64,000 nt of DNA from Allosphingosinicella sp. (GCA_035502235.1 DATJUQ010000027.1:5555-69554); one strand, 5' to 3'; shown: positions 7,779 to 61,937, counted from the first letter of the stretch. Translations and numbers: made by a program. Notes: generated by a model from the sequence alone, not told the origin.

Positions 7779-7981
7779 GTCGTGATGCCGGACGCGGTTC
7801 GGCGGCCAGGTTTCCGGCGGCCGTGCGGGTGGCCGGTTGGACCCTGAAACAAGTTCAGGGTGACGGTGTAGGGGGCGGCTCTTGTGCGCCTCAGTCTTCG
7901 CACCGGCCGTCGGTCCCGGCCTTCGCCGGGGTGACTCCTTCGAAGACCGCCTGGCCGTCACGGGAGTGAATCCCGTGACGT
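7779..7981. repeat. REP cluster (family A GGACCCTGAAACAAGTTCAGGGTGACG at 7839-7865, plus a family-B-like unit at 7912-7935)
   Basis: Identical or near-identical to copies at 10367, 46062 and 56704; lies between convergent genes. Confidence 0.8.
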
Positions 7982-17148: not shown

Positions 17149-17583
17149 TCAGGCGTCGGGCGCGCGCGAAGGCTCGCCGAGAGCGAAACGCCGGCTCGCC
17201 TCGGCAATGAAGGCCGAGCGCGTCAGATTGCGGTCGCCGGCGGCGCGATCGACCAGATTCAGCACATTCTCGTCCATGGTGATGTTCACGCGCAGGGTGC
17301 GCCCGCCGGGCAGGATGGCCGGAATGAGCGTGGCGAAGGTCGCCGTCTCGCGGTCCTCGGCGAAATCGGGATCGTCGATGACCTCCTCGGGCGGGCGGGC
17401 CGGCGGCACCGGGAGACCCGCGTCCACCAAGGCGGCGATATGGTCGGCAAGCACGCGGCGCGCCACGGCGAGGGATTCGTCGAGCGTCGCTTCCCCCGCG
17501 TCCGCCGTGAAGCCGTCGATATCGGGGATGGTGAAGCCGTAGCCGCCCTCGTCGTTCGGAAAGCCAAAAGCAAGATAGTACAT
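17149..17583 (-). CDS. hicB: HicB family antitoxin
   Basis: GYGFTIPDIDG N-terminal RNase-H-like fold and C-terminal RHH (RVNITMDE...RSAFIAEA). Confidence 0.9.
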   Translation of the reverse strand: MYYLAFGFPNDEGGYGFTIPDIDGFTADAGEATLDESLAVARRVLADHIAALVDAGLPVPPARPPEEVIDDPDFAEDRETATFATLIPAILPGGRTLRVNITMDENVLNLVDRAAGDRNLTRSAFIAEASRRFALGEPSRAPDA

Positions 17584-17621
17584 CGTCCGTCATTCCTTCC
17601 CGTCTGTCGGGCCGCCGGGCG

Positions 17622-17807
17622 CTACCGCCACCCCGCCGCTTTCTCGATCGCCAGCCTGAGCCCCCTGGGCAGATCCTTTCTCGGGTGCGGCACCGTGATC
17701 AGGTGCGGGACGCCCTCCTTCTTGAAGGTGACATGGCTGCCGGCCCGCGAGACCTCCGCCCAGCCTTCCCTCCGCAAGCGCCGAATGATGGCGTGGCTCT
17801 CGCCCAT
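17622..17807 (-). CDS. hicA: HicA family toxin (mRNA interferase)
   Basis: LRREGW...GSHVTF...ITVPHPRKDLPRG...IEKAAG. Confidence 0.92.
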   Translation of the reverse strand: MGESHAIIRRLRREGWAEVSRAGSHVTFKKEGVPHLITVPHPRKDLPRGLRLAIEKAAGWR

Positions 17808-17959: not shown

Positions 17960-18610
17960 ATGAGCAAGCTCCGCGTCGCCTGCTTCACCGTGTCGCTGGA
18001 CGGCTATGGCGCCGGGCCGGACCAGAGCCTGGAGACGCCGCTCGGCGTCGGCGGGGAATCCCTCCACGGCTGGATGGTCGGGACCCGCATCTTCAAGGCG
18101 ATGACCGGCCAGGAGGGCGGCGCCACCGGCGTCGACGACGATTTCACCGCGCGGGGCTTCGCCAATGTCGGCGCCTGGATCCTCGGGCGCAACATGTTCG
18201 GGCCGGTGCGCGGCCCGTGGCCGGACGAGAACTGGCGCGGCTGGTGGGGCGAGACGCCGCCCTATCGCTGCCCGGTCTTCGTGCTGACCCATCATGCGCG
18301 CGCCCCGCTGGAAATGGAGGGCGGGACTTTGTTCCACTTCGTCACCGGCGGGATCGGGGAGGCGCTCGACCGGGCCCGGGCGGCCGCGGCCGGCAAGGAC
18401 ATCCGGGTCGGCGGGGGCGTCTCGACGATCCGGCAGTATCTCGAGGCCGGGCTGCTCGACGAGCTCCACCTCGCCGTCTCGCCGGTCCTGCTCGGAAGCG
18501 GCGAGGCGCTGTTCGCGGGGCTGGACCTGCCGGCGCTGGGTTACGGGGTGCGGGAGACGGTGGCCACGGCGGCCGCCAACCATGTCATGCTGGCGCGGGT
18601 GGGGGCGTAG
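17960..18610 (+). CDS. Dihydrofolate reductase / RibD C-terminal domain family protein
   Basis: VSLDGY, ILGRNMF, PVFVLTH, VGGG...IRQYL..GLLDELHL...P.LLGSG. Confidence 0.88.
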   Translation: MSKLRVACFTVSLDGYGAGPDQSLETPLGVGGESLHGWMVGTRIFKAMTGQEGGATGVDDDFTARGFANVGAWILGRNMFGPVRGPWPDENWRGWWGETPPYRCPVFVLTHHARAPLEMEGGTLFHFVTGGIGEALDRARAAAAGKDIRVGGGVSTIRQYLEAGLLDELHLAVSPVLLGSGEALFAGLDLPALGYGVRETVATAAANHVMLARVGA

Positions 18611-18650
18611 GACGGCGCGTTTGGCCGCGCCTGGGGGTCGCTCTCTGTTA

Positions 18651-18765
18651 GTCATCCCGGCGAAGGCCGGGACCCATGAACATTGTTGCTCCCTGTTGAG
18701 CGAAAACGCCGTCGCCACATTCTCACAGGGCCGTGTTCATGGGTCCCGGCCTTCGCCGGGATGAC
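18651..18765. repeat. REPIN-like doublet, family B (GTCATCCCGGCGAAGGCCGGGACCCATGAAC inverted pair)
   Basis: 31-bp arms at 18651-18681 and 18735-18765; other copies at 19435-19549 and 61760-61876. Confidence 0.9.
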
Positions 18766-18974
18766 TATTTTGGTTTGATCCTTTCCCTCTTCCCTTCCCC
18801 CTTTCTCCTTCTATTCTTCCCAGTTGTTTTCTTCTTCTCTCTCTCTATTTTTCCCTACTTCTCTTTCGCGCGTGCCACCTCCTCTTCGTGTGCGATTCCC
18901 CCCCCCCGCTTCCAACGCGACCTTTCCAGAATTATCGTTTTCGATGAATATATCATCGTGCTATACGGTTTTCG

Positions 18975-19289
18975 ATGGCCGCCCATGTCTACATCCTCGC
19001 GAGCAAGCGCAACGGGACGCTCTATGTCGGCTGCACGACGGACCTGCCGAAGCGCATCTTCGAGCATCGCAACGGCCTGATCCCGGGCTTCACCAAGCGC
19101 TACGGCGTGAAGCGGCTCGTCCATGTCGAGACCTATCACGACGTCAGCGACGCGATCGTCCGGGAGCGGCGGCTGAAGGACTGGCACCGGGCGTGGAAGA
19201 TCCGGCTGATCGAGCGGGACAATCCCTGCTGGGACGATCTCGCGGTGAGCCTGCTGGGTTTCGAACCGCTGGTTGCGGTCGCGCGATAG
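18975..19289 (+). CDS. Small GIY-YIG nuclease family protein
   Basis: HVYILASKRNGTLYVGCTTDLPKRIFEH...AIVRERRLKDWHRAWKIRLIE..NP.W.DL. Confidence 0.92.
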   Translation: MAAHVYILASKRNGTLYVGCTTDLPKRIFEHRNGLIPGFTKRYGVKRLVHVETYHDVSDAIVRERRLKDWHRAWKIRLIERDNPCWDDLAVSLLGFEPLVAVAR

Positions 19290-19318
19290 AGTGTGATCCG
19301 GTTGGGTTGGGCCACACA

Positions 19319-19399
19319 CCGTTCGCCCTGAGCCTGTCGATGGGCGTTCCTTCTTGTAGCCGAAAGAAAAGAGAGGGCTTCGACACGCTCAGCCCGAAC
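19319..19399. repeat. REP doublet, family C
   Basis: ccgttcgccctgagcctgtcga...ttcgacacgctcagcccgaac. Confidence 0.85.
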
Positions 19400-19434
19400 A
19401 TTTGGGAGATTCTAACCCGGTGAATCCCAAGCTA

Positions 19435-19549
19435 GTCATCCCGGCGGAGGCCGGGACCTATGAACGCGGTTCTGTCAGGGTGTGGCGACGGTGTCTTCGC
19501 TCTACGGGATATAGCGGTGTTCATGGGTCCCGGCCTTCGCCGGGATGAC
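19435..19549. repeat. REPIN-like doublet, family B
   Basis: Same arms and same 115-bp length as 18651-18765. Confidence 0.9.
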
Positions 19550-19719
19550 TATTTTATTGTGCCGTCAATTCATTGCTTGCTTCCTCTTCCCGCTTTTCTT
19601 CCCGCCGAAGCCTTCGCTTTGGCGTGAAGGGACGGATTGCCGCGCCCAATTGGTGCGGGGCGCGATTGACTCTTGGGCGGGGCGGGCGAACACTCGCGGC
19701 TTCACGCGAGGAGTCGCTT

Positions 19720-19947
19720 ATGGCCGCTTATGCCGTCGAGCTCATGACCCGTTATGACGGACTGGTCATCGCCACCTTCCCGGACCTGCCGGGACTCTCC
19801 GCGCTCGGCCGCGACGACGAGGAGGCGATCGGCGAGGCGCGGCGGGCGCTGGACGAACATGCGCGCTCCGGCGAGGCCCTCCCCGCGCCCGCGGCCCGCG
19901 GCGCGACGATGATCGAGGCGCCGCTGCTGATCGTCCCGGCGGTCTAG
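19720..19947 (+). CDS. Short HicB-like protein (N-terminal domain only)
   Basis: GLVIATFPDLPG...GRDDEEAIGEARRAL......LPAP; RBS GAGGAG. Confidence 0.7.
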   Translation: MAAYAVELMTRYDGLVIATFPDLPGLSALGRDDEEAIGEARRALDEHARSGEALPAPAARGATMIEAPLLIVPAV

Positions 19948-20049
19948 CCCCGCGGCCGGCGCGCCCCAAAAGGCGCAGTCCTCCCGAATAAGCACGGGCC
20001 GCCCCTCGCGGGCGTTGAATTGTGCATGGGGGAGGTTCATGGGGGCGCC

Positions 20050-20481
20050 ATGCTTTCTCAACGAACGCGGTATACAATCAGGGCGCTGCTGCACCTCGCC
20101 GACCGCTATGGGGAAGGCCCGGTGCAGCTCAGCGAGATCGCGCAGGCGCAGAACCTGCCCGGCAAGTTCCTGACCGTGATCCTCTCCCAGATGCGCCGCG
20201 CCGGCCTGGTCGAGACGATGCGCGGCCGCGAGGGCGGCTATTGGCTGGCCCGGCCGCCGGCCGCGATCACCTATGGCGAGATCGTGCGGCTGACCCGCGG
20301 CTCGCTGGGCCTGCTGCCCTGCGCCAGCCGGCTCGCCTACGAGCAGTGCAAGAATTGCATCAGCGAGGACCAGTGCCGCCTGCACCGGGCGATGCTGATG
20401 GTCCGCGACGAGACCGCGCGCATCCTCGACGGACTCAGCCTCGCGGACAAGGTCGAGGTCGAAGAGCAAGTCGAGGCATGA
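20050..20481 (+). CDS. Rrf2 family transcriptional regulator
   Basis: YTIRALLHLA...L.VILSQM...GLVE..RG..GGY.LA; four Cys (PCAS...CKNC...C). Confidence 0.92.
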   Translation: MLSQRTRYTIRALLHLADRYGEGPVQLSEIAQAQNLPGKFLTVILSQMRRAGLVETMRGREGGYWLARPPAAITYGEIVRLTRGSLGLLPCASRLAYEQCKNCISEDQCRLHRAMLMVRDETARILDGLSLADKVEVEEQVEA

Positions 20482-21770: not shown

Positions 21771-21812
21771 AAGGGGACACATACTTTTTCGCGAAAAAGT
21801 ACGTGTCCCCTT
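21771..21812. terminator. Near-perfect 42-bp palindrome between convergent genes (bidirectional terminator or REP)
   Basis: aaggggacacatactttttcg / cgaaaaagtacgtgtcccctt, one mismatch, followed by a T-run. Confidence 0.7.
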
Positions 21813-31345: not shown

Positions 31346-31428
31346 CCGTTCGCCCTGAGCCTGTCGAAGGGCCTTCTTTCTCGTACACGAAAGGAAGGAT
31401 GGGGCTTCGACAAGCTCAGCCCGAACGG
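31346..31428. repeat. REP doublet, family C
   Basis: ccgttcgccctgagcctgtcgaaggg...cttcgacaagctcagcccgaacgg. Confidence 0.85.
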
Positions 31429-60933: not shown

Positions 60934-60943
60934 ACGCCGTCAC

Positions 60944-60971
60944 TTCACATTAAGTCCCTGATCCCTATATA
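60944..60971 (+). promoter_or_regulatory. Probable sigma70 promoter of ssrA
   Basis: TTCACA-N16-TATATA just before the acceptor piece. Confidence 0.45.
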
Positions 60972-61345
60972 GGGCCTGCCGGTTTCGGCCGGCTATGGCG
61001 ATAAATCGTGTCGTGCAATAGACACAGCGGACCCGGGGGCAGTACCCGGCGGCTCCACCACTTGACCCGGTCGGTCAGCCCGCATGAAGCGTGCCGACCG
61101 AGCGGCTCAGCTAGAGGGGCCGAACCAGGATCGACGTGTGTTGAAAAGCGGCGCCTTCGCCCGGAATGGGACCACCGCGACGGCCCATCACACAAGTGCC
61201 AACGACAACGAGGCGCTCGCGATTGCCGCGTAACGAGGTCCTCACGGACTAAGTTATATTGGACAAAAGCGCGGTTCGGGCCGCACCGGGCAACAGAAGC
61301 GGATTCCAGCGGTACGGGGAGCACCGGGCAACAGAAGCTCCCCAC
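60972..61345 (+). ncRNA. ssrA: Two-piece (circularly permuted) tmRNA; tag ANDNEALAIAA
   Basis: Acceptor piece ends ...GGCGGCTCCACCA at 61060; coding piece starts GGGGCCGAA at 61116; tag ORF 61198-61233. Outer ends are approximate. Confidence 0.93.
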
Positions 61346-61714: not shown

Positions 61715-61759
61715 AGGTCGTAGTCAATTGACCAAGGCTTATTTGCGTGTGCTTTCATA

Positions 61760-61876
61760 GTCATCCCGGCGAAGGCCGGGACCCATGAACATTATCGGCC
61801 GAAAAAAGGGCGACCAGCACAACCGACTTTCCTTCAGTTTTCCGTGTGCATGGGTCCCGGCCTTCGCCGGGATGAC
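61760..61876. repeat. REPIN-like doublet, family B
   Basis: Same arms as 18651-18765 and 19435-19549. Confidence 0.9.
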
Positions 61877-61937
61877 TCCTTTTGACCGAGCCGCCCCAAG
61901 TTGACCGATCCACCCTAAGTCTCATCGAGTACGGATC

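Follow-up and report, generated by a model that had tools for sequence, protein, structure and literature searches.

A small gene in a 64,000-nucleotide stretch of the genome of Allosphingosinicella sp. (the window, in what follows) probably encodes an Ssn-family site-specific single-stranded DNA (ssDNA) endonuclease, and the paired repeats that flank it, here called family-B doublets, would be head-to-head dimers of its cognate Ssn-related motif (SRM). The window is C27:5555-69554 of a 4.47-Mb, 68.6% GC metagenome-assembled genome (MAG) of 72 contigs, from the Sphingomonadales and a wetland sample. The association of GIY-YIG nuclease genes of this kind with repeats exceeds chance by far, and the anatomy of the locus, the enrichment of repeats around such genes, the one-to-one pairing of gene and repeat family, the co-variation of the two and the match to a published motif are direct observations.

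Ssn proteins are stand-alone GIY-YIG proteins (CDD cd10448) flanked by SRMs, which lie near 71% of homologues and on both sides of 42% (Chenal et al. 2025, Nat Commun 16:2388, PMC11893778). SsnA of N. meningitidis (94 aa) binds one ssDNA strand only of the 28-nt NTS hairpin, CGTCATTCCCGCGMAVGCGGGAATCYRG, a sequence that includes dRS3. The enzyme's cut falls a few nucleotides upstream of the hairpin, double-stranded DNA (dsDNA) is left uncut, and cutting is abolished by each of the changes Y6A, Y17A and E64A (PMC11893778). Three further homologues cut their own motifs, bringing the number characterized to four, for which binding is strand-specific and confined to ssDNA and the cut lies upstream of the hairpin, and Sphingomonas is listed among the SRM-rich genera (PMC11893778). 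The pairing of enzyme and repeat is thus not new biology, having been published in 2025, and the locus in the window is a further example of an Ssn/SRM system.

The features of the window, with strand where one applies, are these.

18651-18765: upstream family-B doublet, 115 bp, a head-to-head dimer of a tagged hairpin repeat, defined by inverted-repeat anatomy
18651-18683 (+ strand) and 18733-18765 (- strand): arms of the upstream doublet, with a 49-nt spacer between them
18768-18974, + strand: pyrimidine-rich, low-GC spacer from doublet to gene start, 207 bp
18975-19289, + strand: stand-alone GIY-YIG nuclease gene, putatively Ssn-type, 104 aa (Pfam PF01541)
19321-19399: family-C long hairpin, GTTCGCCCTGAGCCTGTCGATGGGC...GGGCTTCGACACGCTCAGCCCGAAC, from another repeat family, found by repeat search and folding
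19435-19549: downstream family-B doublet, 115 bp, in opposite orientation to the upstream doublet
61760-61876: third family-B doublet, of a tight spacer subfamily, found by an arm-core search of the window
7911-7935, - strand: lone degenerate family-B arm with 2 mismatches, whose partner arm is not recognizable

This arrangement agrees with the original prediction, which had placed a 104-aa GIY-YIG gene between two 115-bp family-B doublets and a third doublet at 61760. Both gene-flanking doublets have terminal, inverted arms of ~33 nt, GTCATCCCGGCGAAGGCCGGGACCCATGAAC...GTTCATGGGTCCCGGCCTTCGCCGGGATGAC, around a spacer of ~49 nt, and the arms of the upstream doublet are 100% complementary across 34 nt. 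The two doublets are also inverted with respect to each other (83% complementary across 125 nt), and among the 42 doublets of the genome the downstream one has the spacer closest to that of the upstream one, with 73% identity in opposite orientation. Relative to the gene, the arms stand at -324 and -232 on its upstream side and at +149 and +241 on its downstream side. In the window, the 25-nt arm core is found seven times, versus zero times in 100 shuffles, and when folded as ssDNA an arm gives a hairpin of -9.4 kcal/mol (z -3.4) and a whole doublet a structure of -54 kcal/mol (z -11.6).

The stretch between the upstream doublet and the gene (18768-18974) has a GC content of 0.47 versus 0.69 for the window, is 86% pyrimidine on the + strand from 18768 to 18905, and is single-copy in the genome; presumably it holds the promoter and 5' untranslated region. 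It is missing from the closest orthologous cassette, in which a doublet abuts the gene. Because that homologue (genome G006, 73% identity), which has the family-B arm type in a different gene neighborhood, carries its doublet 4 nt from the start codon, the 207-bp pyrimidine-rich spacer is a local peculiarity.

The protein itself matches Pfam PF01541 (GIY-YIG) over residues 4-76 (E=7.7e-15), and Pfam finds no second domain in its 104 aa. Y17, G19, R27, H31, E64 and K68 do not vary among 31 homologues, at least 90% of which also have Y6; in the window protein, Y6, Y17 and E64 have the numbering of the residues altered in the cleavage-dead mutants of SsnA. NCBIfam holds no model specific to the protein, and a search of solved structures with it returned no Ssn structure and weak UPF0213 and SLX1 matches only, the UPF0213 proteins being nearest (E=2.5e-5). 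The GC content at third codon positions (GC3) is 0.90, as in host genes, and the gene is a single-copy, compositionally ameliorated resident.

The resemblance to published Ssn/SRM systems extends from the protein, a stand-alone GIY-YIG of the ~95-105-aa size class with Y6, Y17 and E64, to the repeats, since inverted copies of a tagged hairpin lie on both sides of the gene and tens to hundreds of copies of the repeat are scattered between genes. The family-B arm, AGTCATCCCGGCGAAGGCCGGGACCCAT, fits the published SRM pattern, HGTCWYN(0-2)YYVSBRHN(0-5)WNVSBRGN(0-2)RNCYNB, on both sides of the gene, and the pattern has 101 matches in the genome versus ~44 in Markov-1 simulated genomes. Several features set the locus apart: the tag is AGTC rather than CGTC, full head-to-head dimers rather than single arms flank the gene, the 207-bp pyrimidine-rich spacer intervenes, and five paralogs, each with a repeat family of its own, share the genome, four of these families lying outside the SRM pattern. 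The transformation-control role described for the published system is that of Neisseria and is not known to extend to the window protein. The genome also contains seven exact matches to the Neisseria NTS consensus, and NTS-type arms occur at 0/5 of the paralogs.

Evidence for a specific partnership comes first from the genome as a whole. A tblastn search found five GIY-YIG paralogs, all single-domain, and 5/5 have high-copy repeats on both sides, each with a different family and with no cross-association.

Paralog C27 (the window gene): family B
Paralog C43: flanking family CGTCACCCTGAACTCGTTTCAGGGTCC
Paralog C12: flanking family GTGCTCCGGCGAAGGCCGGAGCG
Paralog C11: flanking family CGTCATTGCGAGCGAAGCGAAGCAATCCAG
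Paralog C1 (C1:185021-185347, - strand): family C, with the gene between the arms of one long hairpin, CCGTTCGGGCTGAGCTTGTCGAAGCCC...GGGCTTCGACAGGCTCAGCCCGAACGG

Repeats were masked with 18-mers (K=18), covering 0.9% of the genome; masking at K=14 took in 28% and was too lax. By the K=18 mask, genes with a repeat no more than 250 bp away on each side make up ~1% of those predicted, versus 4/5 paralogs. In a second comparison, each locus was scored by the best local alignment of its upstream flank with the reverse complement of its downstream flank. A score of at least 34 was reached by 32/32 GIY-YIG loci (five from this genome and 27 from related genomes), versus 0.7-1.3% of control genes, and the window locus had the highest score, 146, among the small genes scored. 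Since the five gene-repeat pairs have non-overlapping repeat families, they argue for pair-specific recognition.

The pairing recurs across genomes. In a set of 31, made up of this genome and 30 relatives, the protein family is patchy (19/31 genomes, with 1-6 copies), and at each of the 27 related loci examined the gene lies within a matching inverted repeat pair, usually a CGTC- or TGTC-tagged hairpin abutting each gene end and sometimes full doublets as in the window. A scan with eight query sequences, restricted to one genome per species, yielded at least 598 more distant relatives. The best 80, at 53-70% identity, come from many phyla, including Acidobacteriota, Chloroflexota, Planctomycetota, Cyanobacteria, Bacteroidota, Myxococcota and lineages of the candidate phyla radiation. 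Among the 77 of these loci that could be tested, 59 passed the flank test, with tags of CGTC in 30 and TGTC in 14, and an SRM stood on at least one side in 51/77 and on both sides in 29/77, near the published 71% and 42%. Indirect evidence of a link to Neisseria comes from 13 homologue loci with its exact NTS consensus, four in related genomes and nine in other phyla, and the nine proteins are 53-62% identical to the window protein. Enrichment of repetitive extragenic palindromic sequences (REPs) around GIY-YIG homologues had been set beforehand as a test of the original prediction, and it is borne out at 5/5, 27/27 and 59/77 loci, versus ~1% of controls, as well as by the literature. The same holds for the expected co-variation of nuclease and repeat: protein and arm distances are correlated (Mantel Spearman r = 0.50, p = 1e-4; r = 0.31, p = 1e-4 within the main clade only), and proteins less than ~30% distant have near-identical arms.

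From these data and the published biochemistry, we infer the binding and cleavage specificity of the protein and any biological role. The protein would bind the small GC-rich hairpin and its tail when the arm becomes single-stranded, as might happen at a replication fork, during transcription or in DNA entering the cell, and would bind only the strand that reads AGTCATCC... Hydrolysis of the bound strand would follow, a few nucleotides to the 5' side of the tag and so immediately beyond the outer edge of the doublet. The two arms of a doublet would offer the cleavable sequence on opposite strands. Possible roles are control of recombination with incoming ssDNA, as in Neisseria, maintenance of the repeats or purely selfish persistence.

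Several points weigh against assigning the window protein and its repeats to the Ssn/SRM system. The assignment goes by domain, catalytic residues and flanking motifs, and in the eight-sequence scan of the genome collection Neisseria was not among the best 80 loci. The family-B tag is AGTC here, not CGTC or TGTC, and the gene sits 209 bp from the upstream doublet, whereas most homologues abut an arm. Four of the five repeat families in the genome fall outside the published SRM pattern, and for these four the specificity is extrapolated. The organism is known only as a MAG, with the locus read from sequence alone. Logan contigs of the source run, which are independent of the deposited assembly, stop at the repeat arms, and none in the 88% of that run that was covered spans a junction between doublet and gene; because they break there, the physical linkage of gene and doublets rests on the deposited assembly.

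Those assembly breaks bear on the simplest alternative, that the association is a coincidence or artifact in which REPs pile up in permissive intergenic DNA or an assembler joined pieces at repeats. REPs are generally clustered between genes, which would suit such an account, but 5/5 paralogs have a different family each, versus a 1% background, the cassette interior (18796-19411) is present in the source run, with every sampled word in the index (share 1.00), and the arrangement recurs at 27/27 related and 59/77 distant loci in independently assembled genomes, complete ones included. We regard this explanation as very improbable, and the recurrence across genomes effectively refutes it.

It is improbable, too, that the GIY-YIG gene is itself a selfish, homing-type element that inserts into or between pre-existing REP hairpins while the repeats spread by other means. 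GIY-YIG domains are classic homing endonuclease domains, and REPs are the targets of several insertion sequences. At many loci the gene occupies precisely the spacer of a doublet, one cassette type occurs in differing gene contexts, and the distribution among related genomes is patchy, at 0-6 copies; identities of 55-70% to proteins from distant phyla, versus 44-73% within the genus, point to horizontal transfer. Against homing stand a single copy per specificity per genome, a GC3 of 0.90 that speaks for long residence, and a locus with no intron, intein or free-standing homing context. Moreover, the characterized Ssn enzymes leave dsDNA uncut, unlike homing endonucleases, and no donor and recipient allele pairs were observed.

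A different proposal adds to the Ssn/SRM assignment rather than competing with it, namely that the nuclease propagates and maintains its repeat family, as an equivalent of the REP-associated tyrosine transposases (RAYTs). Nicks beside ssDNA hairpins would lead, through repair, template switching or gene conversion, to the copying of doublets to new intergenic sites; the unit with the gene between arms would be autonomous, and the doublets would derive from it as non-autonomous elements. We consider this possible, but short of probable. The layout resembles that of RAYTs and REPINs (REP doublets), with one single-copy gene per repeat family, and the true RAYT of this genome is arranged likewise. 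There are five orthogonal pairs, nuclease and repeat co-vary, and within family B pairwise identity is 89% for arms versus 59% for spacers, with nine near-identical doublets that suggest copying as a unit. The C1-type gene lies inside a long hairpin of which the dispersed repeat is a shorter version. Homologues of the nuclease are also present in five of the six related genomes that have at least 30 family-B arms. Chenal et al. likewise compare the motif-gene-motif layout to an insertion sequence and to RAYT/REP, and raise a RAYT-like hypothesis (PMC11893778); the analogy drawn in the original prediction was already in that paper.

What tells against propagation is in part chemical. GIY-YIG enzymes are hydrolytic, and we know of no covalent intermediate or strand-transfer chemistry for them. 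Co-variation of nuclease and repeat can also be obtained from co-inheritance of a locus, and a target-site duplication is absent from the 42 doublets. Arm counts do not follow the presence of the nuclease cleanly. G014 has 158 family-B-like arms, the most of any relative, and no homologue was found in it (84% complete, 580 contigs); G017 has 16 arms and no homologue was found (99% complete); and only 12 arms accompany the 73%-identical orthologue in G006. In G014 and G017, either assembly missed the gene or the repeats have outlived it. Searches for an insertion polymorphism or an empty site of the cassette or the third doublet recovered none. For the cassette, the search went through homologues of the neighboring RibD_C gene in four relatives only, and no empty site was definable, synteny being too weak: three of the four RibD_C loci have no repeats or GIY-YIG gene nearby, and that of G006 has a non-orthologous GIY-YIG gene (49% identity) 2.4 kb off, whose arms are of another family. 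As for the third doublet, conservation in relatives is limited to the adjacent transfer-messenger RNA (tmRNA) gene, and no empty site was found.

The original prediction had held that the nuclease may nick or mobilize these REPs. A specific partnership is upheld and nicking is probable, by homology to the characterized enzymes (PMC11893778), while mobilization is unproven. Its other suggestion, that the cassette is a minimal mobile element, is likewise unproven: the nuclease genes are single-copy, and neither a target-site duplication nor an empty and filled site pair was recovered.

The comparison with REPIN-RAYT systems is instructive in both directions. In each, a single-copy enzyme gene lies between inverted copies of its own palindromic repeat, inverted doublets are dispersed, several orthogonal enzyme-repeat pairs may share a genome and the enzymes recognize ssDNA hairpins, in the case of the window enzyme by homology. 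The differences are that the enzyme here is a hydrolytic GIY-YIG nuclease, whereas RAYTs are HUH tyrosine transposases with a covalent intermediate, and that the tag is of the AGTC/CGTC type here versus GTAG in RAYT REPs. Furthermore, the one RAYT of this genome, its only Y1_Tnp (RAYT-type) gene (C21:~69720-70370), has a REP other than family B on its flanks, the palindrome GGGGACACGTACTTTTTCGCGAAAAAGTACGTGTCCC, and no family-B arm occurs within 600 bp of it. We considered this RAYT as a mobilizer of family B and rejected it, the sole RAYT having its own REP. The RAYT-flanking palindrome GGGACACRTACTTTTTCGCGAAAAAGTACGTGTCCC stands on both sides of the Y1_Tnp gene (C21:~69680-70500), so that a classical REP/RAYT system coexists with the GIY-YIG systems. 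It has ~22 strand-wise matches in the genome, probably ~11 sites, one of them at 21774-21809 of the window.

Genome-wide, there are ~106 family-B arms, 84 of which form 42 doublets of 93-133 bp. An arm consists of the tag AGTC, the stem ATCCCGGC, the loop GAAG, the complementary stem GCCGGGA(C/T) and the tail CCA. The spacers form one loose group (21 doublets) and one tight subfamily (the nine near-identical doublets). By crude gene calls, 40 of the 42 doublets are intergenic, with 19 in convergent, 13 in tandem and four in divergent spacers and four unclassed, where convergent spacers make up 20% of all spacers in the genome; the repeats thus lie mostly downstream of genes.

By stem, loop, tail and dimer layout family B fits the CGTC-tagged REPs, which have an unpaired CGTC tag (variants TGTC and CCTC), an 8-9-bp stem starting AT, a 4-5-nt loop and a CCA tail (Di Nocera 2013, PMC3733652). 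Mainly alphaproteobacterial, these are mostly head-to-head dimers, lie between genes with a preference for convergent or co-directional pairs, and "apparently lack a dedicated transposase" (Di Nocera, De Gregorio, Rocco, BMC Genomics 2013, PMC3733652). Family B resembles the CGTC-1 type in its unpaired end tag, 8-bp stem starting AT, 4-nt loop and CCA tail, and in being mostly head-to-head dimers that are intergenic, mostly after convergent or co-directional genes, and not associated with a transposase. It differs in the first base of the tag, which is A here; the family-B arm type in a related genome (L006) has C at that position and hence a CGTC tag. With the GIY-YIG association, observed in this genome and reported in 2025, the missing-enzyme gap for CGTC REPs is closed as regards recognition, but not demonstrably as regards mobilization.

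The original prediction had also described the doublets as bounded by TA. This is true of a part of them: the flanks are GA..TA in 14, TA..TA in 12, TA..TC in six and GA..TC in five of the 42 doublets, and TA is not a general boundary. A TA target-site duplication was considered and rejected, since the flanks vary and extend the palindrome; the one flanking letter that never varies, A, belongs to the tag (A)GTC and is preceded by T or G. The doublets resemble miniature inverted-repeat transposable elements (MITEs) that duplicate TA, such as Correia elements and IS630 derivatives, in their length of ~115 bp, terminal inverted repeats, intergenic position, long hairpins and some TA-bounded copies. 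They differ from these in that family B is without a consistent target-site duplication and has highly divergent spacers between conserved arms. No parent insertion sequence with family-B ends was found at full length in the genome, where solitary arms lead into unrelated sequence or other repeats. Two solo, perfectly palindromic arms, TAGTCATCCCGGCGAAGGCCGGGATGACTA, at C12:18590-18614 and C23:41015-41039, appear collapsed; they look like a doublet minus everything between the hairpin halves, or a founder unit.

The C1 paralog adds a second system to this picture. It is UPF0213/YhbQ-like, not Ssn-like, with a match of E=4e-13 to PDB 1ZG2 versus 2.5e-5 for the window protein, and at 9-10 of 11 related loci its homologues lie between arms of the family-C type, CCGTTCG...GAGC...GTCGA... 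Family C has copies in the window at 19321-19399 and 31348-31372. Because family C encloses the C1 paralog and its related homologues, the unit beside the window gene, which the original prediction had correctly seen there, appears to belong to the C1 system. The C1 clade and its repeat type lie outside the published Ssn/SRM definition. A doubtful generalization, to be read as tentative, is that two GIY-YIG clades, one Ssn-like and one UPF0213/YhbQ-like with its gene in a family-C hairpin, propagate or maintain tagged-hairpin repeats as a hydrolytic counterpart of RAYTs, in five orthogonal pairs of which four are outside SRM. The five-pair genome, the four non-SRM families and the UPF0213-like C1 system are leads beyond the published picture, not demonstrations.

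For annotation, the gene in the window can be named a putative Ssn-type site-specific ssDNA endonuclease, with the ~42 doublets (~100 arms) as its cognate motifs. With five paralogous nucleases, each with its own repeat family, the genome is a compact natural test set. Cross-specificity within it could reveal how so small a protein (~100 aa) recognizes a hairpin, with a bearing on the use proposed for Ssn enzymes as programmable ssDNA cutters. The same five pairs could address whether enzymes drive the spread of repeats, a question left by the 2013 and 2025 papers.

The surroundings of the repeats offer some further observations. In both gene-flanking doublets the right-hand arm is followed by TATTTT and scores like an intrinsic terminator on the + strand (18743-18771 and 19527-19555). 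The first such site lies ~130 nt past the stop of the RibD_C gene and the second past the nuclease gene, and the gene-flanking doublets may double as terminators. An Rfam scan of 18400-19800 gave sub-threshold miRNA-hairpin look-alikes only; hence, the doublets are not a known RNA family. The third doublet forms part of a larger repeat of ~170-195 nt, the best copy of which spans 61732-61901, and lies ~450 nt downstream of an alphaproteobacterial tmRNA gene (60940-61307; Rfam RF01849, 224.6 bits), in DNA that is variable among relatives, where only the tmRNA end is conserved. Near the cassette, a 75-aa ORF at 19720-19947 has no Pfam match, a HicA toxin/HicB antitoxin pair (Pfam E=3.8e-14 and 3e-16) occupies 17149-17807 on the - strand just upstream of the RibD_C gene, and a gene for an Rrf2-family regulator lies at 20020-20481.

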